Assembly: GCA_001823535.1 (NCBI GenBank)
Contig: MHUT01000006.1
Span: 27,631-91,630, forward strand
DNA from: Candidatus Yonathbacteria bacterium RIFCSPHIGHO2_02_FULL_44_14
GTDB taxonomy: Bacteria; Patescibacteriota; Minisyncoccia; Phycocordibacterales; UBA1550
DNA: 64,000 nt
Direction of reading: 5' to 3'
Shown here: piece by piece, positions 2,215-44,724 of the stretch
Position numbering within the stretch: the first letter of the stretch is position 1
Layout of the letters: the number at the start of each line of letters is the position of its first letter
Notes under the pieces: model-generated
Told to the model about the DNA's origin: nothing
Databases searched by the model: none
The model's input: the letters and a program-made list of their open reading frames with translations, nothing else
Position numbers and translations under genes: made by a program

Positions 2215-3540
2215 ATGGAACGAACATATATCAAAGACCTAAAAAATCATATTGGGGAAGAAGTCACTGTTAAAGGATGGGTGGATATTCGTCGTGATCA
2301 TGGTAAGCTCATTTTTCTTGATCTTCGCGATATGACAGGCAAAGTGCAGATGGTTGCGCTCCCAAACAATGCCGAGGCCCACACTGCAGCTACAACTGCT
2401 CGTTCCGAGTGGGTTATTGGGGTGCGTGGCATGGTGAACACGCGCCCCCCAAAGATGGTAAAAGAAGGTCTCAATGGTGATCTGGAGATCGAGATGCTCG
2501 ACGTAAAAGTTTTAGGGAAAGCGCAGGAACTTCCGTTTGAGCTTGGAGCGGAGCTTAACCTTGATACCTATCTCGACAACCTCCCGCTTACTCTTCGTGA
2601 GGAAAAAGCGCGGGCGGTATTTAAAGTTCAGGCAGTAATTATACACGCATTTCGCAATTTTCTTGTTGGTGAAGGATTCACGGAATTTCAAGCGCCGAAA
2701 CTTATTGGAGAAGATGCAGAAGGCGGAGCAAACTCATTTAATGTTGAATATTTTGGCCATACTGCACACCTTGCACAGAGTCCGCAGCTCTACAAACAGA
2801 TCATGGTCGGCGTATTTGAGCGAGTATTCTCAACAGGTAATGTATATCGCGCAGAGAAACACAGCACAACGCGACATTTGAATGAATACACGAGCCTTGA
2901 TATCGAGATGGGTTTTATCAAGGACCATACTGATGTGATGAATATGGAAAATCGTATTCTCGCGTACATCACCAAAGAGCTCAAAGAAAAGTGCGCTGCT
3001 GAGTTTGCTCTTTTTGGAGCAACCATTCCTGAGGTTCCAGAAAAAATTCCTGCAATGAAACTCCGCGAAGCGCAGGAGATTATCAAAAAGGAAACGGGGG
3101 AGGATTGCACAAAAGAGCCTGACCTCGAACCCGCACACGAACGTTTCCTCTGCGAGTATGCAAAACGTGAATTCGATTCTGATTTTATTTTCATCACGCA
3201 TTTTCCAATTACCAAGCGACCATTCTACACACACGAAGACGAGACTGATCCTGGTTATGCAAAGGGCGGTGACTTACTTTTCCGTGGTATCGAGATTACA
3301 ACGCTTGCACAGCGTATTCATGACTACGACACCCTCGTACAGTCGATGAAAAACAAGGGACTTGATCCTGAAAAGTTTCGCTTCTATTTGCAGGCTTTCA
3401 AATATGGAATGCCTCCGCACGGCGGGCTAGGGCTTGGTCTAGAACGTTTGACTACAAAGTTTCTTGGACTCGAAAATGTGAAGCAAGCGACGCTTTTCCC
3501 GCGCGATCTCAACCGCATTGACATGTTGCTCTCAAATTAA
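2215..3540 (+). CDS. aspS: Aspartate--tRNA ligase, archaeal/eukaryal-type class IIb (possibly non-discriminating)
   Basis: LAQSPQLYKQ and GNVYRAEKHSTTRHLNEYTSLDIEM motifs typical of archaeal-type AspRS rather than AsnRS. C-terminal GLGLERL. Confidence 0.8.
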   Translation: MERTYIKDLKNHIGEEVTVKGWVDIRRDHGKLIFLDLRDMTGKVQMVALPNNAEAHTAATTARSEWVIGVRGMVNTRPPKMVKEGLNGDLEIEMLDVKVLGKAQELPFELGAELNLDTYLDNLPLTLREEKARAVFKVQAVIIHAFRNFLVGEGFTEFQAPKLIGEDAEGGANSFNVEYFGHTAHLAQSPQLYKQIMVGVFERVFSTGNVYRAEKHSTTRHLNEYTSLDIEMGFIKDHTDVMNMENRILAYITKELKEKCAAEFALFGATIPEVPEKIPAMKLREAQEIIKKETGEDCTKEPDLEPAHERFLCEYAKREFDSDFIFITHFPITKRPFYTHEDETDPGYAKGGDLLFRGIEITTLAQRIHDYDTLVQSMKNKGLDPEKFRFYLQAFKYGMPPHGGLGLGLERLTTKFLGLENVKQATLFPRDLNRIDMLLSN

Positions 3541-3542
3541 AT

Positions 3543-3884
3543 ATGCTCAATCAAGCTATCTTGATTCTATTCGCTGGCGGAACATTTCTAACTCTTGGAG
3601 ATATTACCGCTAAAAAATGGGTAGAGCTTTCAGATGGCAGGTTTTCTGTTGCTACACCATATTATGTTTTGAGCCTTGCATTTTATTGTGTAGGAGTTAC
3701 GTTATTCGCGTTTACACTAAAACAAAAAAATATTGCCATCGCGACAGTCATCCTTATCTTTTTTAACGTGCTTACCGTTTCAATTGCGGGCTACTTGTTG
3801 TTCAATGAAAAATTTTCAGCCCTTCAAATCTTGGGAATAGCCATTGGTTTTTCGGCTGTTGTTATTCTTGAAATAGCGGAGTAA
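3543..3884 (+). CDS. Small four-TM membrane protein, SMR/DMT-like
   Basis: 113 aa with four hydrophobic helices. Family assigned by shape only. Confidence 0.45.
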   Translation: MLNQAILILFAGGTFLTLGDITAKKWVELSDGRFSVATPYYVLSLAFYCVGVTLFAFTLKQKNIAIATVILIFFNVLTVSIAGYLLFNEKFSALQILGIAIGFSAVVILEIAE

Positions 3885-3910
3885 TATTGAAAAAATAGGA
3901 GATACATATA

Positions 3911-4651
3911 ATGACTCACGATTATCAAATTAAAACAGATGTATTTGAAGGACCACTTGAGCTCTTGCTTGACCTTGTAGAGAAGCGCAAACTTTTTATC
4001 AACGAGATTTCGCTTGCTCAGGTTGCGGATGATTACATCGCGCATCTAAAGGAGTTTGAAAAAATGCCCGTGGATTTTGTATCCAACTTCCTTATTGTTG
4101 CGGCAACACTTATCCTCATTAAGTCAAAATCACTCTTACCAACACTTTCTTTAACAGAAGAAGAAACCCATGACATTGATGAACTTGAGAGACGTCTTAA
4201 GGAGTACCAGAAAATCCGCGAGCTGTCCGTGCATGTAAAGCAAATGTTTGGCGCGAAAATCTCTTTTCCAAAAGGGCAATCTCGAGAGCGCGAAGCAGTG
4301 TTTACACCAAGCGAAGAAATTACTGTTAAAAGTATTTTTTCGGCAGTGAAGGATGTTATTCTTCATTTCCCGAAAAAAATCACGCTTCCAAAAGTTGTAG
4401 TGAAAAAAGTTATCTCGCTTGAGGATATGATGGACAGGCTAACTACACGTATTACAGGAAGCTTGAAAATGAGCTTTCGTGATTTCGCCGGCGTAGGGAA
4501 GGAGGAGAAAGTAAATATTATCGTGAGTTTCCTCGCCATGCTTGAATTGGTTAAGCAGGGGATGATCGCCGTAACGCAAGGATCTCATGGCGATGATATT
4601 GAAATCGAAACTAAAGTGCTCGAGACGCCAAATTACGGCGCTTCCACATAG
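3911..4651 (+). CDS. scpA: Segregation and condensation protein A
   Basis: N-terminal LLDLVEKRKLFINEISLAQVADDY kleisin signature. About 246 aa. Confidence 0.85.
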   Translation: MTHDYQIKTDVFEGPLELLLDLVEKRKLFINEISLAQVADDYIAHLKEFEKMPVDFVSNFLIVAATLILIKSKSLLPTLSLTEEETHDIDELERRLKEYQKIRELSVHVKQMFGAKISFPKGQSREREAVFTPSEEITVKSIFSAVKDVILHFPKKITLPKVVVKKVISLEDMMDRLTTRITGSLKMSFRDFAGVGKEEKVNIIVSFLAMLELVKQGMIAVTQGSHGDDIEIETKVLETPNYGAST

Positions 4652-4690
4652 TCCCCAATCCTGATATTCGGTTTTTCGACTAATCCTTTA

Positions 4691-4732
4691 CTATGTACCT
4701 ATTTTGCTCGATAGAGCAAAATAGGTACATAG
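4691..4732. repeat. Perfect 19-bp inverted repeat with a 4-nt loop, between scpA and scpB
   Basis: ctatgtacctattttgctc-gata-gagcaaaataggtacatag. No downstream T-run. Confidence 0.7.
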
Positions 4733-4767
4733 TTGGTGCATCATGAGCATGTGATACAATAGGCTAT

Positions 4768-8524: not shown

Positions 8525-9648
8525 AAATTCTTTTTACCGGAGGCGGTAGCGGCGGACATTTTTATCCGATTATTGCCGTTGCTGAAAAATTAAATAAGAT
8601 GCTTGATCGCGAAAAAATGGCGAGCGCAGAGCTTTACTACATGTCGACCGAACCTTATAACGAAAGGCTATTGTATGACAATAAAATAAAATTCAAACGG
8701 GTGACAGCAGGAAAAATGCGCGCATATTTCTCCATTCAAAACTTCTTTGATATATGGAAGACCAGCTGGGGCATTTTCAAGGCGCTTTTTCAACTTTTTG
8801 CATTGTATCCCGATGTTATTTTTGGAAAAGGAGGATTTCCGAGTTTCCCCGTTCTTTTTGCCGCCCGCCTTTTTCGCATCCCAGTGATTATTCACGAATC
8901 AGACAGTGTCCCCGGACGCGTAAACGCATGGGCGGGGAAATTTGCACAAAAAATAGCGATCTCTTATGCTGAGGCAGCGCAGTTTTTCCCCGAAGGCCGC
9001 ACGGCGCTTACGGGAAACCCGATTCGAGAAGAAGTTCTTCGACCATCAGGGAAGGAGGCGTTTAAAGAGCTTGGGCTGGATCCAAATATTCCAGTACTTC
9101 TTGTTCTTGGTGGTTCTCAAGGTGCGCGCGCTATCAACAATCAAATGGAGACGCTTGCGCCGCGGCTTGTAGAAAAATACCAAATTATTCATCAAGCGGG
9201 TGAAGTAAATATGGCCGAAGTCCAGACTACCGTGAACGGTCTTTTGGGAGGCAATCCAAATGCATCACGTTACCACATTTATGGATACATGGGTTCTGAA
9301 ACAATGAAGCTTTCCGCTGAGGCGACTACTGTTGTTGTGTCCCGCGCTGGGTCTGCGATTTTTGAAATTGCGGCGTGGGGCATACCCGCAATACTTATTC
9401 CGATTGCAAACCATGTTGGCGATCATCAACGGAAAAATGCGTTTGCTTATGCGCGGTCGGGTGGTGCGGTGGTTATAGAAGAGGCAAATCTCGGACCAAA
9501 TATTTTGCTGTCAGAAATAGAAAATTTAATGCAAGATGAGAATAAACGTGCTGTAATGAAAGAATCGGCTAAAGTATTTGCGCGTACCGATGCGGCCGAA
9601 AAAATTGCCGAGCAGATTATTGCGGTTCTTTTGCGGCATCAGATTTAA
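8521..9648 (+). CDS. murG: UDP-GlcNAc--undecaprenyl-PP-MurNAc-pentapeptide GlcNAc transferase
   Basis: N-terminal MKILFTGGGSGGHFYPIIAVAEKL; GT28 architecture. ATGA overlap with the ftsW stop. Confidence 0.85.
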   Translation: MKILFTGGGSGGHFYPIIAVAEKLNKMLDREKMASAELYYMSTEPYNERLLYDNKIKFKRVTAGKMRAYFSIQNFFDIWKTSWGIFKALFQLFALYPDVIFGKGGFPSFPVLFAARLFRIPVIIHESDSVPGRVNAWAGKFAQKIAISYAEAAQFFPEGRTALTGNPIREEVLRPSGKEAFKELGLDPNIPVLLVLGGSQGARAINNQMETLAPRLVEKYQIIHQAGEVNMAEVQTTVNGLLGGNPNASRYHIYGYMGSETMKLSAEATTVVVSRAGSAIFEIAAWGIPAILIPIANHVGDHQRKNAFAYARSGGAVVIEEANLGPNILLSEIENLMQDENKRAVMKESAKVFARTDAAEKIAEQIIAVLLRHQI

Positions 9649-9752
9649 GAATAGAAGCTGCGCGATATCTTCTTGTGTCGTGTTGCCGGCTTAGGTACCA
9701 TGTGTCTCATAGCAGAGCGCGCGATAATACTCGTTTGCTACAATAAAAAAAT

Positions 9753-11096
9753 ATGACGAAAGTAATCACAAGATTTGCACCATCACCGACAGGGGTACTC
9801 CATATTGGATCCGTGCGCACCGCACTTTATTCCTGGCTCTATGCAAGGCAAAATAACGGCAAGTTTATCCTGCGTATCGAGGATACCGATAAAGAGCGTT
9901 CAAAAAAGGAATATGAAGATAATATTATTGATGGGTTAGAGTGGCTCGGGCTCACTCACGATGAGTTTTATCGTCAATCGGACCGCTCTGATGTTTATAA
10001 AAGGCATCTTCTCGCGCTTATTGCAGACGGGACTGCGTATGTTTCAAAAGAAGAACCAAAGGAACTAGGTGAGCGTTCCGAAGTGATTCGCTTCAAAAAT
10101 CCCAACAGAGTGGTCACTTTTCACGACGTAGCACGCGGTGATATTTCATTCGACACGACAGAGCTCGGCGATTTTGTGATTGCAAAGGATTTTGAATCAC
10201 CACTTTATCATTTCGCGGTCGTGGTGGATGATTTTGAAATGCGAGTTACTCATGTAATTCGTGGCGACGATGCTATCTCGAATACACCGCGACAAATTCT
10301 TATTCAAGAGGCGCTTGGTGCTCCTCGTCCTGTATATACGCATTTGCCTATGATCCTTGCGCCTGATAAATCAAAACTATCCAAGCGTCATGGCGCACTT
10401 GCGGTGACGGAATATCGCGAAGAGGGATATTTGCCGGAGGCAATCCTTAACTTTGTGGCACTCATGGGCTGGAATCCGGGCAATGACAAAGAAATTATTT
10501 CTCTTGATGAGATGATCATGCTCTTTAAACTCGAAAAGATTCAAAAAGGGGCTGCTGTTTTTAATATTGATAAATTAAAGTGGCTTAATAAACACTACAT
10601 AAAACTTCTTCCTGCTGAAAAAGCGGGTAAGGAGATTCTCGCGCGATTTCCTGAAATGTTACGCATAAAGGCGGAAGATAACTCAGAAATTTTTTCAAAA
10701 ATTATTGTTGTCATACTTGATCATATTTCAACGTTTGGCGAAGTACGCTTTTTTGCGGAGGCAGGGGAGTATAGGTATTTTTTCGAGGATCCTATTTACC
10801 CGCGCGAGGCACTCTTGTGGAAGGACGAGCAGGAGCCCACACGAGCGGCAGAAAAATTAGAGAAAGTTCTTGTGCTTCTTGAGGAAATTGATGATGTGTT
10901 TTTTACGCCTGAAACTATAAAAACTGCTATTTGGGACTACGCAACCGAAGCGGGGCGGGGGAGTGTCCTTTGGCCGATGCGCTACGCTCTCTCTGGTCGC
11001 GATAAATCCCCAGACCCATTTATACTATCGAGTATTCTGGGGAAAGAAGCAACGATTCGTCGCATTGAAAATGCGATAAAATTGCTTTTAGGATAA
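9753..11096 (+). CDS. gltX: Glutamate--tRNA ligase
   Basis: RFAPSPTGVLHIGSVRTALYSW...RIEDTD and KLSKRHG motifs. Confidence 0.9.
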   Translation: MTKVITRFAPSPTGVLHIGSVRTALYSWLYARQNNGKFILRIEDTDKERSKKEYEDNIIDGLEWLGLTHDEFYRQSDRSDVYKRHLLALIADGTAYVSKEEPKELGERSEVIRFKNPNRVVTFHDVARGDISFDTTELGDFVIAKDFESPLYHFAVVVDDFEMRVTHVIRGDDAISNTPRQILIQEALGAPRPVYTHLPMILAPDKSKLSKRHGALAVTEYREEGYLPEAILNFVALMGWNPGNDKEIISLDEMIMLFKLEKIQKGAAVFNIDKLKWLNKHYIKLLPAEKAGKEILARFPEMLRIKAEDNSEIFSKIIVVILDHISTFGEVRFFAEAGEYRYFFEDPIYPREALLWKDEQEPTRAAEKLEKVLVLLEEIDDVFFTPETIKTAIWDYATEAGRGSVLWPMRYALSGRDKSPDPFILSSILGKEATIRRIENAIKLLLG

Positions 11097-11111
11097 TCAA
11101 TTTTATACGGT

Positions 11112-12395
11112 ATGCGCAAAATTATTTACCAATTCACCATTTTTATATTCATCGGTATAGTGGCATTGGTCACGGATTCTTTTGTTTTTGCTCAAACTGT
11201 AGATGAGTTGGAGAGAAAAATTGCATCACAAACAACTCTTATCCAAAAACTTGAGCAAGAGATTCGGCAATATCAAGGTGACTTAGCAACACTAGCTACG
11301 AAGAAAAAAACACTGAAAAATGCTATCGCAGCCCTTGAAGTTACGCGCAAAAAACTTGAGGCAGACATTAAACTAACACAAACAAAGGTCGACACGACAG
11401 ATTTAAAAATTCGCCAACTTGGTTCAGAAATATCCTACAAAGAAAATGAGATAAATGTGCGCAAGGCAGCCCTCAAGGAGGCGCTCCTTGAGATGTATGA
11501 GAGCGACGAGCAGTCATTGGCACAAATTGCGTTGTCTAACGAAAGTTTTTCCGGGTTATGGAATGACATTGAAACACTGGAACAATTTAGTTCTAGTGTG
11601 ACTGAAAATGTTGAGTTGATAAAGTCTCTCAAAGCAGATCTGGAACAAAAAAACAAAGTGAAGCAAAATGAAAAAGGAAAACTTTTAGGACTCAAAGAGG
11701 AACTTGGTGATCAGAAGAAAATAACTGAGGATAATAAAAAGCAGACGACGAAACTCTTGACTCAAACAAGCAATCAAGAATCAAAATATCAGCAGATTCT
11801 TAAGGACAAGCTCGCGCTTAAGGAGGCTCTTGAAAAAGAACTTCGTGAATATGAATCAACCTTGAAGTTCATTCTTGATCCTTCGTCGATTCCTCCACGT
11901 GGCACAAAAGTTCTTGCTTTACCCGTTGATAATTATCGTATTACTCAATATTTCGGAAATACTGAATTCGCAAAAAGTGGCGCATATAATGGTAGCGGAC
12001 ACAACGGCATAGATTTTGGAGTATCGACAGGGACGCGCATAAAAGCGATGCTTTCAGGTGTCGTGGTTGGCACAGGGAATACGGATCTATATCCCGGGTG
12101 CTATTCGTACGGAAAATGGGTGCTTGTAAAGCACGCGAACGGACTCTCTACCCTCTATGGGCACCTCTCGCAGATCAAGGTATCGAACGGACAGTCAGTT
12201 GGTACTGGAGATCTTTTGGGCTACAGCGGTAACACTGGATACAGCACCGGCCCGCATTTGCACTTAACGGTATTCGCAAGTGCCGCAGTTAATGTTGTTC
12301 GTCTTGGAGATATCAAAAAGTCTACCAATTGCGCGAATGCATCAATTCCTGTTGCCGCCCTCAACGCATATCTTAACCCAATGGATTACTTATAA
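11112..12395 (+). CDS. M23 family peptidase with N-terminal coiled coil (EnvC-like)
   Basis: Long heptad-rich N-terminus. C-terminal GHNGIDFGVSTGTRIKA...HLHLTV LytM motifs. Confidence 0.8.
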   Translation: MRKIIYQFTIFIFIGIVALVTDSFVFAQTVDELERKIASQTTLIQKLEQEIRQYQGDLATLATKKKTLKNAIAALEVTRKKLEADIKLTQTKVDTTDLKIRQLGSEISYKENEINVRKAALKEALLEMYESDEQSLAQIALSNESFSGLWNDIETLEQFSSSVTENVELIKSLKADLEQKNKVKQNEKGKLLGLKEELGDQKKITEDNKKQTTKLLTQTSNQESKYQQILKDKLALKEALEKELREYESTLKFILDPSSIPPRGTKVLALPVDNYRITQYFGNTEFAKSGAYNGSGHNGIDFGVSTGTRIKAMLSGVVVGTGNTDLYPGCYSYGKWVLVKHANGLSTLYGHLSQIKVSNGQSVGTGDLLGYSGNTGYSTGPHLHLTVFASAAVNVVRLGDIKKSTNCANASIPVAALNAYLNPMDYL

Positions 12396-12632: not shown

Positions 12633-12781
12633 GCCACTGTTTGCGTTCAAAAGTGAGTATTTTTACCCACAATAATATTATAGATAACTTCCTTAATCCA
12701 TTCTATAGTCGTAAAAGATATATTGTGCGACGTGCGTCTAAATCATTTTTTAAGGCATACCCCCACTAATTAACAGACTAT

Positions 12782-13531
12782 TTATTGTTGTGATATAAAT
12801 TTCAGAGTCGACGTAAATAATTCTTTTTTTGCAGCACTCGTGCCAAACATATGCCCAGTGTTCTTTATTATTTTTAATCGTTTTTTTTCAGTAGAGTTAT
12901 CAAAGTAATACCTTGTATTATCACGTGCTCCTTTTTCTGCACCAATATATAACTTGTCAACAGTAAGTGTCTTTAGGATTCTATCTATATCATCGTACTT
13001 CTCTAAATCATTCAAAAATTTTCTGGAAAAACTTATTAGAAATTTGTACTTTGTATCTTTTGTTTTGTAAACATTTTTTGCCTCATCAAAAATAAAATTA
13101 CTTTTTATTGAATCAACAATCTGAGATGGCACACTCGGGTCCCACAGGATTAGTTTCTTGAATTTTATCAGCTTGGAGTATTTTTTGTAAAATAAAATTG
13201 AAATGACAGCACTAAAACTATGTCCAATAATAACTACCTCCCTATATTTTTTATTTGAACTTTGAATGCATTGATATAAACTTTTCAAATAAAGGTCAAC
13301 ACTGAGGTCGCCCATTTTGAAACAATCTGATTTATTAAAAATATCATCATTGCAAAAATTTATACGCAGAATATCAAAATCATTTTTTTTAAAAAACTGC
13401 GTCCCCATTTTAACCAAAAAACTATCCTTACCACCAGAAATGCCACTCATGATAACAAGTAAAACATCGCTCCCTTTTTTTTCATAAAGGTCAAAATAAA
13501 CAAATTTATTTTTCAATATATTTAATTTCAT
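12782..13531 (-). CDS. Alpha/beta-fold hydrolase (esterase/lipase-like), strongly AT-rich
   Basis: GHSFS nucleophile elbow (GxSxG) and a C-terminal NTGHMF putative His. Codon usage dominated by K/N/I/F/Y, unlike the flanking genes. Confidence 0.6.
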   Translation of the reverse strand: MKLNILKNKFVYFDLYEKKGSDVLLVIMSGISGGKDSFLVKMGTQFFKKNDFDILRINFCNDDIFNKSDCFKMGDLSVDLYLKSLYQCIQSSNKKYREVVIIGHSFSAVISILFYKKYSKLIKFKKLILWDPSVPSQIVDSIKSNFIFDEAKNVYKTKDTKYKFLISFSRKFLNDLEKYDDIDRILKTLTVDKLYIGAEKGARDNTRYYFDNSTEKKRLKIIKNTGHMFGTSAAKKELFTSTLKFISQQ

Positions 13532-13540
13532 CTAGATAAT

Positions 13541-13573
13541 TAAAATAAAAAGCAAGGGCGTTTTTGCCCTTGC
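13541..13573 (-). terminator. Rho-independent terminator after the DUF397-like gene
   Basis: gcaagggc-gttttt-gcccttgc hairpin followed on the minus strand by a T-run. Confidence 0.6.
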
Positions 13574-13590
13574 TTACCCGGCAAGTACGC

Positions 13591-13854
13591 TCAGAGTTCG
13601 TCAAAATTGAGTTCACCCTCCCGGATACCTTTTGTGAATGCATCCCACTCGTCCTTGTCAAAAGAAAGAGTTGTTTTGTTCGGGTCCCTCGTTGACCTTA
13701 CGAGGAGTCGGCCACCCTCTTTTTTAACGCTTACGCAAGAGAATGAGATCGGCTTCCTTTTTGTAAATGAAGTGGTTTTGAATCCTTCTTCGTCGACCTT
13801 TTGGCCCTGATTGTTGGTTGTAAATGCACAACCGTTTCCAAAAACATCTTTCAT
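13591..13854 (-). CDS. DUF397-like small protein. Start reassigned to ATG 13854; the track start is a GTG at 13866.
   Basis: C-terminal half SCVSVKKEGGRLLVRSTRDPNKTTLSFDKDEWDAFTKGIREGE aligns with the actinobacterial DUF397 consensus. A degenerate N-terminal copy (GNGCAF) precedes it. Own terminator. Confidence 0.55.
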   Translation of the reverse strand: MKDVFGNGCAFTTNNQGQKVDEEGFKTTSFTKRKPISFSCVSVKKEGGRLLVRSTRDPNKTTLSFDKDEWDAFTKGIREGELNFDEL

Positions 13855-13965
13855 AATATACCCCACTTTCTATCAAATGAATTAAGGAAAACTACCACCT
13901 GAAACCTAAAAGGCTTCAATGAAACAGTACCATATAATTAATTGCAAAGCAAGAGCAGAAAACAA

Positions 13966-14057
13966 GTTATCCACACCCTGTGGTTTGCGTAGCATTGCCC
14001 TAAAGCTTGATTGTGCGACGTGGGTATAATAGATTCCACCTAGCTCCCCTTTGCTTG
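13966..14057. repeat. Direct repeat copy 1 (~92 bp), left boundary of the three-gene cassette
   Basis: Near-identical to 16370-16470 apart from two small indels. Overlaps the last 5 codons (QAKGS) and stop of the ATP-grasp gene. Confidence 0.9.
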
Positions 14058-15098
14058 GCTCTGTTTCTTGATGTACGTGTCTACTGCATCGACAAAAATT
14101 CTCTCTGGATTAGGATGTTCACTAATTTTTTCCCAGCCAAGCGTTCCTTTGCGAAAGAAAAATGAAGAATGTTCTACTGCGTACTGCCCAAAACTTAAAA
14201 ATTGAAACTCAATAAGGAAATATTCGTTATCTCTGATTGCGACATCTATAGAAATAAACGGCACATTAAAAAATGTAAAAACCTTATCTGCAAAGTTTAA
14301 AAGATCGTCAGGTACTTCTTCTGGAAACGAGAGGATCCCGCTTCCACTTGCTCGGAAATCTCCCGGCCTGTTTCCCCTCCTGAGCACATAAAATCTATTA
14401 TCGTATATTAAAATTTTATAGTCGTGAGATAAGTCTGAAATAAAATTTTGAACTATAAATTTTCTGCGATAATTTGAGATTGATTTGAACCCTTTTCCAC
14501 TTAGGATGCCATTAAAGAATCTTTTTAAGTTTATAAATGAATAACTTCTTGCTATGTAGCGAGAGGCGTGCAAAGCTTCCTTTTTTGATCGCACAAGCCT
14601 CACTCCGCTACCCTTTGATCCAGATCCTGGCTTTATAACAATCGGAAGCCGGTTCCCGCTAAAAGATCCTTCGAATTCATCGAATGTTCCATATTTTTCT
14701 GAAATAATGTTTTGGATTAATGGGAATCTACTACTATCCCTTAAAATTTCCATGAACACTTTATTATGGTGAGCTCTGAACTTATAAAAATCTGGTATTA
14801 GGATAGCCTTGTTAATTTTAAGCCCTAATAAAATATCTTCAATATAATCCTTATAGCGAAGATCTGGGTCCTCTGCGGATTGATACAACACAAATGATCC
14901 TGCGTATTTATCTGAATGAAAATCAACATTTGAGAATCTCTCAATTTCAACACTGTATCCTCTGTTTTTAAATAAACGCTTCAATTCTGAGGTGTTCATA
15001 CTCCCAGCAACTTCCTTTGTTGATGAATAAAAAGTATTTCGATAATCGAGCAAAATAAAAAGTTTTTTAGTCATTTCTATCCTTAAAAATTTCTTCAA
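14040..15098 (-). CDS. ATP-grasp fold ligase; substrate unknown
   Basis: PIVIKPGSGSKGSGVRL glycine-rich loop. C-terminal ISIDVAIRDNEYFLIEFQF Mg/ATP-binding beta-strands. Its 3' end lies inside repeat copy 1. Confidence 0.7.
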   Translation of the reverse strand: MKKFLRIEMTKKLFILLDYRNTFYSSTKEVAGSMNTSELKRLFKNRGYSVEIERFSNVDFHSDKYAGSFVLYQSAEDPDLRYKDYIEDILLGLKINKAILIPDFYKFRAHHNKVFMEILRDSSRFPLIQNIISEKYGTFDEFEGSFSGNRLPIVIKPGSGSKGSGVRLVRSKKEALHASRYIARSYSFINLKRFFNGILSGKGFKSISNYRRKFIVQNFISDLSHDYKILIYDNRFYVLRRGNRPGDFRASGSGILSFPEEVPDDLLNFADKVFTFFNVPFISIDVAIRDNEYFLIEFQFLSFGQYAVEHSSFFFRKGTLGWEKISEHPNPERIFVDAVDTYIKKQSQAKGS

Positions 15099-15612
15099 AA
15101 AAGATTTGATCCCTCACAATATTGAACGCAGTATTATAGAATTTTATTTCCCCTTTTCTTACTTTATCTACCTGTTCTCTAAGAATTTTTCTTGCAGTTT
15201 CACCCTCAAGCCAAATAACTGAAAGATCGTTCTTTTTTTCGTCCTCGGTCCGCAGGTCCCCATAAGTTTCTTTTTTTGCCTCTACCAAAAAACAAATAGT
15301 TTCGTATTCTTTTGCATCTCTGTCGCGAAACTCATGAATCCGACCAACCTCACGCTCCACATCAACCTCATAACGTATCTCTTCGATACATTCTCTCTTG
15401 ATTTCTTGAATAATATCTGCGCTTTCAGCTCCTCCGCCTGCCAAAAGATAACATTTATGAATAGGGTTTGTAATAAAACCAAACTCCCCTCCCTCATTTT
15501 TCACAAGAGCCTTTACTGTCACCCTTTTTTCGTAATGATCAGGGGTAATGTGTGTCGGTTGAGGGAAAATGTCTTTATCGTGCAATGTAGCTAAATAATA
15601 CATATTACTCAT
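15067..15612 (-). CDS. Nudix-like hydrolase with divergent Nudix box. Start taken at the internal ATG 15612; the 5' ORF extension overlies a terminator hairpin.
   Basis: GGGAESADIIQEIKRECIEEIRY approximates the Nudix box GX5EX7REUXEEXGU with a one-residue shorter spacer. Overlaps the ATP-grasp start by 32 nt. Confidence 0.5.
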   Translation of the reverse strand: MSNMYYLATLHDKDIFPQPTHITPDHYEKRVTVKALVKNEGGEFGFITNPIHKCYLLAGGGAESADIIQEIKRECIEEIRYEVDVEREVGRIHEFRDRDAKEYETICFLVEAKKETYGDLRTEDEKKNDLSVIWLEGETARKILREQVDKVRKGEIKFYNTAFNIVRDQIFFEEIFKDRND

Positions 15613-15620
15613 TCTATCAT

Positions 15621-15656
15621 AAAAATTGGGCTTTCCGGCGGGTGGACGGAAAGCCC
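15621..15656 (-). terminator. Terminator-like hairpin immediately after the histidine phosphatase stop
   Basis: gggctttcc-...-ggaaagccc 9-bp stem, followed on the minus strand by aattttta. Confidence 0.5.
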
Positions 15657-15662
15657 AAAAAA

Positions 15663-16310
15663 TCAAACATTAAAATCAATTTTCGGAAGCGGCTTCTCGA
15701 GGATGAATTGACCGCATCCTGTATTGAAGAGAGCAGCGACGTAGCAATTGGGCGGATTTGCAAAAAAACAAAATTCATCATCAGTGATTGCCAGAAAAGC
15801 TTTCACAATGACTCTTAGGGCAAATCCATGTGTAAAAATTACTACACACTCAGGATGGTCATTGGATGCGCCGTCACTTTTTAATTCCTCTATAAATTGC
15901 TCAATGTCATGCACAAAGTCAGGGGTGTAATCTCCCTGAGGGAATTGGAAGTGTAGTACCCCGATACGATATCTCTCTTTCTCGACCTCCTTAATGGTTT
16001 TTTCGTCTACGTTGCCCCAGTTCAAGTTTCTAATACGTGGTTCAACGGTGACATCAAAATTGACCAAAGGAAAACTCGAACAGAATAATGACATTGTTTG
16101 GTCCGCGCGGTTTGAAGGCGAAGTAATTACCTTTACTCTTTGGTACAAATTTATCTCTTGAGATAAATTCCCTACTATTTCCAAAGCCTGCTTCTTTCCG
16201 GTTGTCGTAATTGAAATTCTACGATCTGGAACAACGCTATGCAAACAAGGGTCAATATCTTCTTCTGATTGCGCGTGCCGAACAAGAAATATACGTTTCA
16301 ACATTCCCAA
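15663..16310 (-). CDS. Histidine phosphatase superfamily protein (phosphoglycerate-mutase-like, branch 1)
   Basis: N-terminal LVRHAQSE (RHG motif) and a later THG motif (IFTHGF). Confidence 0.75.
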   Translation of the reverse strand: MGMLKRIFLVRHAQSEEDIDPCLHSVVPDRRISITTTGKKQALEIVGNLSQEINLYQRVKVITSPSNRADQTMSLFCSSFPLVNFDVTVEPRIRNLNWGNVDEKTIKEVEKERYRIGVLHFQFPQGDYTPDFVHDIEQFIEELKSDGASNDHPECVVIFTHGFALRVIVKAFLAITDDEFCFFANPPNCYVAALFNTGCGQFILEKPLPKIDFNV

Positions 16311-16369
16311 CTCCTTTTTAAAAAGAACTCAGTATATGTTGCGCTACAAATACAAATTTGTCAATAGCC

Positions 16370-16470
16370 GTTATTCACACCCTATGGCTTGCGTAGCATT
16401 GCCCTAACGCCTAAAGCTTAATTGTGCGACGTGGGTGTATAATAGATTCCACCTAGCTCCCCTTTGCTTG
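16370..16470. repeat. Direct repeat copy 2 (~101 bp), right boundary of the cassette
   Basis: Same sequence as 13966-14057 with acgcc and tg insertions. Supplies QAKGS-stop to the 81-aa ORF ending at 16453. Confidence 0.9.
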
Positions 16471-16698
16471 ATTTAAAAACTGTGCACCAAACGCCACCAG
16501 GAAAAGATACACAAATGCTCCCGCAGCGTAATACGCCATCACGAGTGAAACATTCCTATCAAAAATATTGTAAAGAAAAATAGGAAGAAAGACACCAAGG
16601 AGTCCGCTCGATATCGCCATCACCATGCGTCCAAAATAGAGCCCAAAGAACCCTCTCCTTCGTTCTTTGTTAGTTAGTAAGTAGTCCAGGTTTTCCAT
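16453..16698 (-). pseudogene. N-terminal fragment of a polytopic membrane (transporter-like) protein, fused to the repeat-encoded tail
   Basis: 81 aa with two TM helices, ending in the repeat-derived QAKGS-stop. Too short for a transporter, so likely truncated by the recombination that created the repeat. Confidence 0.4.
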
Positions 16699-42714: not shown

Positions 42715-44724
42715 CTATTTTTCTTGATACAACGGGTTGCACCTAAGGCAAATCCCCAGTTCAACCAGTTTATTGAGGTATTTTATAACAGTCATAATGT
42801 ATTCTGAATGGCTCCACGTAAGCGGTGTTGCCGAAAGTGGTTCTCCGCTGTATGGATGCAGTTGTTCAGAAAATACTCCAGATTGAGTAGTGTGTCTTAC
42901 CGCCCATTCGAGCCATTGGTGAACCGGCGCAAAATCAGATTCTTTTTTTGCGCGCGCAATGTAGTACTGTGCGAGCCAAAGAGTGGTTATGATCCATGGG
43001 TTTCCAGGCACGCCCGTTGCGTCGCGGAAATAGAGATCCCCTTCGTACCTCGCAACACCGCCAACAGCTGTCTTTAATAAAATGCGGTCCTCAACTTGTT
43101 TTATTGCGCGGGCGAGACGCGGGTCATCGATATCAAGAATACCAAAAGCAAAAACGCCATACACGCTGGACATATCAAGGGTGCGGTCAGAAGTAATCGT
43201 TCCGTCTTCTGACACGTTAATCATTTTTATAAATGTTCCAGTCTCTTCGTCGTATAAAAAATTGAGTATTGATTGGCGAATTTCAAATGCGGCAGTTGTA
43301 TAGATATGCTCGCTTTTCTCTTTTCCTAAAAGCTTTGCAAATTTCGCGGCAACCATAAGTGCCTGGTACACCGATGCTGATGTAAATGTGTGAATACCGA
43401 ACTTCTCTTCCCAGAGATCATAGGAGGCTTTTGGAAGCCGAGTTTTTGGATCGCGGTATCCGACCATAAAATCCGCTGCGCGCTTTACGAGCGTATTATA
43501 AATTTTTTCAATGAACTCAATATCCTTCGATTGCGTATAATGATGCCAAAGCGCAATAAGCACCAAGGCCGTTTCATCTTCTTGTATTGGAAGCTCTATT
43601 TTGCCATTCCTCATCCACGGATGCCATGAACTACCAAGGGACTCGTCAGAGCGGTATTTATGCATAAAGTACCCATCGTCTGTTATAACGTGCTCGCAGA
43701 AATCAAAAAAACGTTCCGCGACATTAAAATCTCCAACCATGTCAAATGCCATCGCTGAAAATGCGCCATCACGCGGCCACATGTAGCTGTACGTGTCACG
43801 ACCGTTTTGGAGCATGTCAGAATCCGCTGATGCGATAATCGCGCCTCGATTGTCGGCGTGCGTACGAATAGTGAAGACAGATCTTTTAAATAGCGAGATT
43901 TCATCCTGCGTAAGTCCATAAAATGAAAAATTGTATTTATTTACCCATGCATGCCAATAATCGCGAGTTGTCCTAAGTAGATGCCCTGGGTTTTTTTCAA
44001 GGGTGTACGCATTAAGATCCAGTGCCTCCTTTATAGATTCCGCAGCAGCGACCCAATAGTAAAAAGTTTTTGATTCGTGGGGCGCGATGTCGAGATAAAA
44101 CCCAACAACGGAATCCGACGGACCATGCTCTATCAAGTTTTTTGAAAGAACTCCATCCTCAGCATCTTTGAAGCTTCCCTCTTTGCCCTCTATTTTAAAT
44201 ATCCCCGCGGTGTAGTCGTCAAAACTCCCTTTTTCCGAAAGGCCATTGATGAGGAATACGCGCTTTCCGTTGTAGTGAATGACCACGTGATTTATAGGGT
44301 CAAAATACGCCGTATCTCCACGGTGAGATTCATACATCTCAAACTCATGTCCAAAGAAAAGTTTGATTGTGCGCTCTCGGTCAGAGTCGTTGGTAACTTT
44401 TACCTCCCGAAGAAAAATGTTTTTTTCATTGTATACGATGTCAGAAAAATTGAGCGTAACTCCGAGCACATTGTTTTTTGCTGTTGTTTCACCGAGGAGT
44501 GATTGATCAGAAGATCGGATATGTATGTCCCAGTTTGAGTGGTCAAACCAATTGAGCTGATAGTCCGCAAATACGCCGACACGATGCGTGTAGTGTCCAC
44601 CGACGTGATTTTCAAGCCCAACATACGGAAAATAAAAATCACGCACCTGCGCGCGCTTATCCGTGCAGACGAGAATATTTCCATTACCGAGTGAAAGGGA
44701 CTTAGGCATACGTAAAGTATACAA
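42715..44724 (-). CDS. Glycoside hydrolase family 15 (glucoamylase/glucodextranase-like), archaeal-type
   Basis: N-terminal beta-sandwich plus (alpha/alpha)6 barrel with MWPRDGAFSAMAF. Confidence 0.7.
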   Translation of the reverse strand: MYTLRMPKSLSLGNGNILVCTDKRAQVRDFYFPYVGLENHVGGHYTHRVGVFADYQLNWFDHSNWDIHIRSSDQSLLGETTAKNNVLGVTLNFSDIVYNEKNIFLREVKVTNDSDRERTIKLFFGHEFEMYESHRGDTAYFDPINHVVIHYNGKRVFLINGLSEKGSFDDYTAGIFKIEGKEGSFKDAEDGVLSKNLIEHGPSDSVVGFYLDIAPHESKTFYYWVAAAESIKEALDLNAYTLEKNPGHLLRTTRDYWHAWVNKYNFSFYGLTQDEISLFKRSVFTIRTHADNRGAIIASADSDMLQNGRDTYSYMWPRDGAFSAMAFDMVGDFNVAERFFDFCEHVITDDGYFMHKYRSDESLGSSWHPWMRNGKIELPIQEDETALVLIALWHHYTQSKDIEFIEKIYNTLVKRAADFMVGYRDPKTRLPKASYDLWEEKFGIHTFTSASVYQALMVAAKFAKLLGKEKSEHIYTTAAFEIRQSILNFLYDEETGTFIKMINVSEDGTITSDRTLDMSSVYGVFAFGILDIDDPRLARAIKQVEDRILLKTAVGGVARYEGDLYFRDATGVPGNPWIITTLWLAQYYIARAKKESDFAPVHQWLEWAVRHTTQSGVFSEQLHPYSGEPLSATPLTWSHSEYIMTVIKYLNKLVELGICLRCNPLYQEK

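Follow-up and report, generated by a model that had tools for sequence, protein, structure and literature searches.

A horizontally acquired gene islet beside a candidate dif site at the replication terminus of a Yonathbacteria genome

We analysed 64,000 nucleotides of the genome of Candidatus Yonathbacteria bacterium RIFCSPHIGHO2_02_FULL_44_14 (contig MHUT01000006.1, positions 27,631–91,630), which belongs to a metagenome-assembled Yonathbacteria population of the Rifle aquifer; this whole stretch is referred to as the window, and coordinates are counted from its first letter. An islet within it (~12732–16452) is horizontally acquired DNA at the replication terminus, directly against a 24-nt palindrome that is a candidate for the chromosomal dif site. 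The islet is made up of two independent cargo units, a DUF397-domain gene with an alpha/beta-hydrolase-like gene (module 1) and a trio of histidine phosphatase (HisPhos), Nudix-like and ATP-grasp genes (module 2), and is considered foreign because relatives have empty sites, its GC content deviates and its modules are found in other contexts. We are highly confident that foreign modules were inserted at the dif-adjacent terminus, where they replaced most of a major facilitator superfamily (MFS) transporter gene. As to how they arrived, the sequence leads us to favour slightly an insertion of the modules by Xer recombination, in the manner of integrative mobile elements exploiting Xer (IMEX). 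Bacteria of the candidate phyla radiation have tiny genomes and little is known of how they acquire genes; this locus brings to light, for a large clade yet to be cultured, an integration hot spot along with candidates for dif and for an FtsK-orienting word.

From left to right the locus consists of dif, module 1, site A, module 2, site B and the truncated MFS gene. The sites and the gene remnant are as follows:

12708–12731, + strand: candidate chromosomal dif (site C), a 24-nt palindrome GTCGTAAAA-GATATA-TTGTGCGAC, in full GTCGTAAAAGATATATTGTGCGAC
13966–14057, + strand: repeat A, ~92 nt, with a left part at 13966–13995 beginning GTTATCCACA, a core at 13996–14019 with ATTGTGCGAC at 14010–14019, and a right part at 14024–14057
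16370–16470, + strand: repeat B, ~101 nt, with a dif-like core at 16407–16430, ATTGTGCGAC at 16421–16430, and a right part at 16437–16470
16453–16698, − strand: MFS transporter remnant, an 81-aa open reading frame (ORF) of 77–78 native codons joined to the repeat-encoded (Q)AKGS-stop

Foreign genes in place of a transporter gene

Our comparison set consisted of 80 loci of other Parcubacteria species, fetched via the neighbouring GltX gene, plus the window itself; the related loci cover 20–64 kb per genome and reach down to ~54% GltX identity. A first-pass annotation of the window, made from sequence alone, had taken the 81-aa ORF for a membrane-protein fragment, and it is indeed the N-terminus of an MFS transporter that is intact in relatives. 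Matches in tblastn were confined to residues 1–77 (58–81% identity) and came from ten relatives, nine of them among the closest loci (L017–L034). In L017 and L034, for which ORFs were listed, the MFS gene is full-length (399–402 aa) and its stop lies 47–50 nt from the palindrome; the L017 protein matches PF07690 MFS_1 with 69 bits. Six more loci (L020, L018, L023, L024, L027 and L032) have the matched MFS N-terminus at full-length-gene spacing from dif, such that dif is followed by the 3' end of the MFS gene in L017, L034 and these six. None of the five islet genes was found in any of the 18 closest loci. The comparison with related genomes that the first-pass annotation had proposed therefore supports an insertion, with at least eight relatives keeping MFS at this position (intact by listed ORFs in L017 and L034) and 18 close loci lacking the islet genes.

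The islet begins within 50 nt of the palindrome, and at its other end repeat B supplies the last five codons and the stop of the shortened MFS ORF. The idea of an insertion into a membrane-protein gene thus stands as far as inserted foreign DNA is concerned, but the gene was not merely split: ~320 terminal MFS codons are gone, which implies at least one illegitimate deletion. With the host flank deleted, the insertion at dif was not a clean one. If residue Q78 is native (it is Q in L034 and R in L017), the junction between MFS gene and repeat shares only the three nucleotides TTG/CAA, which suggests illegitimate joining. A 3' remnant of the MFS gene between dif and the hydrolase gene was also considered and rejected, as only a 7-nt resemblance at the wrong spacing was seen there. 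No intact MFS copy from the same species was found.

The composition of the islet also sets it apart. In 1-kb windows GC content is 0.34–0.385 at 13–16 kb vs ~0.44 elsewhere. Relative to the 53 other long ORFs (0.445 ± 0.028), the hydrolase gene (GC 0.283, z = −5.9), the ATP-grasp gene (0.355, z = −3.3) and the Nudix-like gene (0.370, z = −2.7) are low, and neither the HisPhos gene (0.407) nor the DUF397 gene (0.438) is clearly deviant. Hence the islet is AT-rich, as first described, by 1-kb GC and for three of its five genes, with the HisPhos and DUF397 genes falling outside that description. The excess of K, N, I and F codons reported for the leftmost gene is real; K, N, I, F and Y together make up 43% of the hydrolase vs 26%.

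The arrangement is not a product of mis-assembly: among contigs assembled independently of one another from several samples (ENA, JGI and NCBI), 13 cover repeat B at 99.9–100% identity and 11 of these cover both repeats. A chimeric join at the repeat is therefore highly improbable. It could be invoked for three short public contigs (L014–L016) that end inside the 34-nt stretch identical in A and B; these breaks are probably a k-mer effect of the repeat. The contigs of this clonal population showed no presence/absence variation.

Direct repeats and the ends of two genes

Repeats A and B are 87.1% identical over 101 alignment columns (BLAST). Between them there are four substitutions and two indels, one of 7 nt (CTAACGC) and one of 2 nt (GT), and their final 34 nt are the same (14024–14057 and 16437–16470). 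For the segments common to both, 0.00–0.29 matches would be expected by chance in the window. The left part of each repeat is ~30–40 nt long and opens with a DnaA-box-like GTTAT(C/T)CACA. Each repeat furthermore covers the final 18 nt of a minus-strand ORF, hence both the ATP-grasp ORF (14040–15098) and the 81-aa ORF (16453–16698) terminate within a repeat with the peptide QAKGS-stop.

The two direct repeats and the shared QAKGS ending had both been reported by the first-pass annotation and are as it described them. Its statement that the copies differ by two short indels only misses the four substitutions, and its count of two copies misses a third. A combined repeat and pattern search placed this third copy of the repeat core at 12708–12737, left of the islet, with ATTGTGCGACGTG at 12722. 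The repeats were also said to bracket the islet. They do enclose the trio, but not the islet as a whole: module 1, with its hydrolase and DUF397 genes, is placed between dif and repeat A.

The repeat might instead be a cis-acting expression signal (terminator, promoter/operator or small RNA) that was duplicated to serve both operons, its likeness to dif being incidental. Read on the minus strand, each copy does sit in the gap that separates one unit's stop from the following unit's start, with the HisPhos gene starting 60 nt downstream of one copy and the DUF397 gene 100 nt downstream of the other, and repeat B has TGTATAAT on the + strand. We nevertheless consider this explanation improbable, as neither strand of either repeat folds better than shuffled sequence (z 0.0 to 1.2), Rfam returned no match in the repeat, a consensus scan of the repeat detected no promoter or terminator, and the sole extended −10 element is antisense. 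Homologous trios and DUF397–hydrolase pairs elsewhere, moreover, lack the ~95-nt repeat.

Three further identities were examined and dismissed. A structured RNA or riboswitch is contradicted by the same Rfam and folding results. The 3' end of a tRNA or tmRNA, serving as an attachment site, does not fit either, as the sole tRNA of the window is at 62.3 kb and the repeat has no T-arm. A dispersed repeat family would not be restricted in this way, with only three core copies in 64 kb, all inside 3.7 kb.

A conserved palindrome as candidate dif

Across the clade the 24-nt palindrome takes the form GTCGYAAAA-GATATA-TTGTGCGAC. With two flanking bases per side it becomes a 28-bp site (12706–12733) of 11-6-11 layout, NNGTCGCAAAA-GATATA-TTGTGCGACNN. 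Known dif sites are ~28 bp long, with two 11-bp arms in imperfect dyad symmetry around an AT-rich spacer of 6–8 bp (PMC5357621). Site C agrees with the 26-nt clade consensus at 25 of 26 positions and is its sole match in the window. Allowing up to five mismatches, the palindrome occurs exactly once, in one orientation, in 63 of the 81 sequences, and four further loci have variants with an intact right arm. Its position is constant: the GltX and M23 peptidase genes come first, then a small membrane-protein gene, and the palindrome is just past the latter. Conservation is limited to a 26-nt block, in which the right arm carries ~1.9 bits per position and the left arm 0.6–1.6, around the AT-rich spacer GATATA. 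Compared with E. coli dif, 16 of 28 positions match.

Bases just outside the two arms tend to be complementary (ACG...CGT, ATG...CAT, GTG...CAC), for example in 41 of 62 aligned sites where 32 would be expected. A hairpin function of the palindrome was considered on these grounds and set aside, as this co-variation is just slightly above expectation.

In Legionella, dif was recognised because it is located at the terminus, coincides with the maximum of cumulative GC skew and lies in non-coding DNA flanked by genes that vary (PMC9765430). In our window the cumulative GC skew peaks at 11–13 kb and the palindrome is at 12.7 kb; all eleven long ORFs to its left are on the + strand and nearly all to its right on the − strand. 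The 62 related loci with the palindrome show the same switch in ORF orientation, from + to −, across the site. GC skew drops across the palindrome in most loci and changes sign in about three quarters of those with full flanks. The right-hand neighbours of the palindrome vary and include MFS, PEBP and EndoIII genes, a provirus and the trio.

The word AGGGAAG points toward the palindrome from both sides, with 149 copies in that direction and 7 in the other in left flanks and 91 and 4 in right flanks (62 Parcubacteria loci, L017–L097, plus the window). This is a polarity ratio of ~18, while the 34 other permutations of A3G4 range from 1.1 to 7.6. It is also enriched ten-fold in the 80 nt beside the palindrome. 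Examples in the window are at 1905, 4495, 6476 and 9048 (+ strand) and at 44174 (− strand). From this pattern AGGGAAG is a candidate FtsK-orienting word of the clade, as it behaves like FtsK-orienting polar sequences (KOPS).

Recombinase genes and proviruses adjoin the palindrome in several relatives. In L072 a XerC/D-like gene (13057–14034) begins 27 nt after a variant site (13007–13030, CCTTCGTTTTACATATATTGTGCGAAGG). Its product scores 223–227 bits against the NCBIfam XerC and XerD models (227 for XerC, below the equivalog cut-off of 335) and matches Pfam Phage_integrase at 5e-40. Xer-like or integrase genes are also found 120–460 nt from the palindrome in L044 (site 13614–13637, gene 13758–14714, − strand) and L186 (site 3338–3361, gene 3823–4755, − strand). 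This linkage of recombinase and palindrome in the three loci resembles the linked xerS/difSL and xerH/difH modules. Furthermore, the exact 24-mer is present in four IMG/VR contigs. L187 (272–5168) and L189 hold an inovirus-like provirus directly right of the palindrome, with a Zot-like ATPase (PHROG 197, E = 4e-11); L189 is identical to part of L028 (10564–15621), which is a sister Yonathbacteria of the Rifle aquifer too. At the far end of the provirus, in L028/L189 and in L187 alike, we found no further dif-like site. One tailed-phage IMG/VR contig carries the palindrome at its end.

On the basis of its architecture, single copy per sequence, GC skew, ORF orientation, KOPS-like word, linked Xer genes and provirus, we infer that the palindrome is the chromosomal dif of this clade. 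In the literature searched we found no published description of dif or Xer for the candidate phyla radiation. If the assignment is correct, a large uncultured clade gains a dif consensus and a candidate FtsK-orienting word (AGGGAAG), together with examples of cargo using the site, namely a provirus and recombinase-less modules. The palindrome is also a practical terminus marker for checking and closing metagenome-assembled genomes.

Dif-like cores in the repeats and secondary sites

The cores at 12708 (C), 13996 (A) and 16407 (B) are all on the + strand and therefore direct repeats. They match the clade consensus at 25, 19 and 18 of its 26 positions, respectively. In A and B the match is complete (12/12) over the right arm plus its two flanking bases. 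The sequence ATTGTGCGACGT is the same in C, A and B, always on the + strand, and the number expected by chance for the 16-mer is 0.29 per window. In A and B, moreover, the right part is similar to what lies natively to the right of dif in relatives: a TATA-rich stretch comes first and a C-rich word after it. On the minus strand this word reads AAGGGGA, which is the second most polarised word of the clade and is directed toward dif.

Secondary sites are not restricted to the window. Across the clade, a five-fold enrichment of right-arm copies with at most one mismatch is seen at distances up to 1 kb from dif; exact copies number 22 up to 4 kb away, and 18 of them fall in the first kilobase. Small arrays of secondary dif-like sites occur in several species.

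A few observations concern the neighbourhood of dif in other species. Tandem dif-like units with both arms and altered spacers (e.g. GTCGCAAACGTGGATTGTGCGAC) lie immediately left of the genuine dif, without cargo genes, in L034 (12890–13195), L017 (12945–13060), L076 (13040–13395) and L059 (~13290–13500); the arrays of L034 and L076 are partly N-masked. Six species spanning the clade have an ORF of 205–232 aa between the small membrane-protein gene and dif (L018 12950–13648, L023 13895–14557, L031 13063–13731, L074 13431–14066, L085 14254–14871, L036 11160–11807), with sub-threshold matches to HNH_repeat, a family associated with homing endonucleases. In five of the six (not L036) this ORF is bounded on the left by a CTTGTGCGAC half-site, 0.7–0.86 kb from dif, and it may be a single-gene module at dif.

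The DnaA-box consensus TTATCCACA is found on the + strand 9–35 nt right of dif, as a perfect match in L091, L059, L064 and L073 and with one mismatch in L056 and L079. Perfect boxes beside dif in four species compare with ~0.01 expected by chance. The copies in the window (13967–13975 and 16371–16379) are 40 nt left of a dif-like core.

Proposed insertion by Xer recombination and its alternatives

The events that we slightly favour would run as follows. A circular DNA with one dif-like site would recombine with dif, or with a resident dif-like site, via the host Xer tyrosine recombinase, and successive insertions would pile up beside dif. Since the host would provide catalysis, the cargo would need no integrase of its own. 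Each module does have a ~95-nt site on the side away from dif, with a degenerate dif core and a different spacer. A separate illegitimate deletion, after or alongside insertion, would have removed MFS codons 79–399 and whatever lay right of repeat B, after which the MFS remnant would read into the repeat. The first-pass annotation had placed the mobilising function elsewhere or among kinds not recognisable here; the host Xer recombinase now becomes a candidate for it, as the repeat core is a copy of the dif right arm and the islet abuts dif. Its comparison of the repeats with attL and attR was apt in that foreign DNA was inserted. The repeats are not the ends of the whole islet, however, and at ~95 nt they are too long for exchange at a 28-bp site.

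Several observations weigh against a role of Xer. The duplicated segment of ~95 nt far exceeds what exchange at a 28-bp site creates, and RecA-dependent recombination between ~95-nt homologies would explain the duplication just as well. Over the left arm plus spacer, A and B agree with the consensus at only 7/14 and 6/14 positions, barely above chance, and the A and B sites may lack recombination competence. The MFS truncation shows that illegitimate recombination acted at this locus. No Xer gene was seen in the 64-kb window. Neither an empty-site strain of the same species nor a circular form was found among public contigs. The ~95-nt site is absent from viral contigs, metagenome contigs and every fetched locus outside the clonal population, and all 16 contigs bearing it belong to this one population. 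The repeat arms likewise had no match in IMG/VR or in the metagenome collection, the latter being a weak negative as the collection evidently lacks this population. Finally, among ~85 contexts of the trio (~40 fetched with a complete trio and ~45 further ATP-grasp loci), only the window and L097 adjoin this dif sequence.

Part of this evidence would be expected if the terminus were a hot spot without any role of Xer, into which DNA enters by RecA-dependent or illegitimate recombination wherever insertions are tolerated. The dif half-sites would then be passengers, and the 95-nt repeats a dif flank duplicated by unequal crossing-over or by integration of a circle through 95-nt homology. The repeat does reach 45 nt left and 34 nt right of its core, its right part is like the native dif flanks of relatives, and the left arm and spacer are weak. 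The loss of ~320 MFS codons, with a possible 3-nt microhomology at the junction, is a signature of illegitimate joining. However, the three cores are co-oriented and have kept the right arm exactly while neighbouring bases diverged, secondary dif-like sites cluster beside dif in many species, and in a sister species this position is taken by an inovirus-like provirus, an element of a type known to exploit Xer. We regard this alternative as unlikely, while granting it a real chance.

A dedicated recombinase might also have captured the units as cassettes and since been lost, or be encoded elsewhere, as in an integron or an island moved by a tyrosine or serine integrase, with the repeats as attachment sites. 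The layout is cassette-like, each unit being followed by a related site in one orientation, and integrase genes adjoin the palindrome in L044 and L186. The repeat has no attC-type hairpin, however, and an XerD probe found no tyrosine recombinase in the window, nor was one found among the scanned ORFs, in agreement with the first-pass annotation, which had reported neither integrase nor transposase there. As the core of the site is the chromosome's own terminus palindrome, the evidence points to a housekeeping recombinase, and we consider capture by a dedicated enzyme quite improbable.

If insertion by Xer took place, Xer-exploiting integration would extend from a few Proteobacteria to the candidate phyla radiation, in a minimal form of just a few metabolic genes travelling with a dif-like site. 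A broader proposal can be put forward only tentatively, and we rather doubt it: the dif of Parcubacteria might be a general gene-capture platform, at which the housekeeping Xer inserts, stacks and perhaps also excises recombinase-less modules, each with a half dif and flank (~95 nt). If true, such a platform would resemble an integron run by the chromosome-segregation machinery, and would offer a route of gene exchange to ultra-small bacteria with few classical mobile elements.

Cargo genes and their occurrence elsewhere

Within the islet, the genes and the one additional element are as follows:

12782–13531, − strand: alpha/beta-hydrolase-like protein of 249 aa (module 1), with few homologues, some annotated as dienelactone or alpha/beta-fold hydrolases
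13550–13575, − strand: terminator-like hairpin between the DUF397 and hydrolase genes, with a stem of ten pairs, six of them G-C, and a T-run after it
13591–13866, − strand: DUF397-domain protein (module 1; PF04149, E = 6e-7), 87 aa in public gene calls
14040–15098, − strand: ATP-grasp ligase, RimK/GshB-like (module 2), 344 aa from the called start (14040–15074), with a weak Pfam ATPgrasp_ST match
15067–15666, − strand: Nudix-like hydrolase (module 2; PHROG MutT/NUDIX, E = 2e-6)
15663–16310, − strand: histidine phosphatase branch 1 (module 2; PF00300, E = 3e-18)

The hairpin at 13550–13575 is strong, hence the DUF397 and hydrolase genes may not share one transcript; a weak Rfam match to it was attributed to chance. 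The ATP-grasp protein has 944 homologues, to many of which JGI gives the name "glutathione synthase/RimK-type ligase-like ATP-grasp enzyme", and its C-terminal tail differs across 33 homologues. Homologues of the Nudix-like protein in L098 and L191 carry PF00293, and the Nudix-like gene is always found in a cluster with ATP-grasp and HisPhos genes. HisPhos has weak NCBIfam matches to the alpha-ribazole phosphatase and phosphoglycerate mutase families. The five islet proteins gave no phage structural or replication, plasmid or defence matches, only the hydrolase-like fold and the DUF397, ATP-grasp, Nudix and HisPhos families; a defence system was likewise discarded, with no PADLOC match to the islet.

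Clusters of this trio are widespread in metagenomes of Patescibacteria, where the gene order takes several forms and the contexts are many. Its nearest counterparts are in L191 (74%), where it adjoins tuf, and L190 (80% nucleotide identity), and homology extends only from 16323 to 14068/14052, short of both repeats. In L097 the trio (8774–11430 of that locus) is ~380 nt from dif. Its proteins are 63–69% identical to those of the window, compared with just 55.5% for GltX, which together with the renewed position beside dif indicates horizontal transfer and a second arrival at dif. In the same locus an epimerase gene takes the place of the window's PEBP gene and MFS remnant, and beyond dif, on the opposite side, a 355-aa gene has been inserted. 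The trio was also considered as a dedicated dif-targeting module and rejected in that role. As the palindrome is near only the L097 trio among the contexts fetched elsewhere, the trio is an accessory operon of an ordinary kind, which arrived at dif two or more times.

The DUF397–hydrolase pair occurs as a unit in L182–L185. The stretch at 12795–13864 is 70% identical at the nucleotide level to L183–L185, and this homology ends before repeat A. In L126 (7995–13195), an unrelated 120-kb metagenome contig, a DUF397 homologue of 46% identity is 3 kb from a trio, which hints at a functional link between the two cargo units.

Comparison with known systems

Known IMEX include CTX-phi, VGJ-phi and TLC-phi of Vibrio cholerae, the gonococcal genetic island and Legionella LME-1 (PMC5357621, PMC9765430). 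The islet is like them in its position at a candidate dif, in having no recombinase of its own that we could find and in the empty site of its relatives. As in TLC-phi and the gonococcal island, there is dif on one side and, on the other, a direct degenerate dif with one good and one divergent arm, and the tandem stacking beside dif recalls TLC, CTX and RS1. It differs in lacking phage, plasmid, replication or transfer genes and in carrying two to three metabolic or unknown cargo genes per unit; as no functions of an autonomous element were found, we speak of IMEX-like modules rather than of an IMEX. Further differences are a site of ~95 nt vs ~28 nt, the deleted host flank and a host from the candidate phyla radiation, in which all of this is read from sequence.

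The dif or pdif modules of Acinetobacter are bounded by two Xer sites in opposite orientation, C/D and D/C (PMC12907356). They share with the islet the small recombinase-less units, the Xer-type sites, a serial array with shared internal sites and cargo that is unrelated between modules (PMC12907356, PMC11705084). In contrast to the islet, their sites alternate, the modules are for the most part plasmid-borne or located elsewhere than at the main dif, and many replicons share identical ones. The sites of the islet are direct repeats, its array is against the main dif, and no second occurrence of its site was found.

Compared with integron cassettes, the islet has no attC-type hairpin and no integron integrase was found in the window. 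Its platform is the terminus palindrome, and its units consist of two to three genes. It resembles integron cassettes in its promoter-poor units, each followed by a recombination site of a size within the 60–140 nt of such sites, all in one orientation and on a fixed chromosomal platform.

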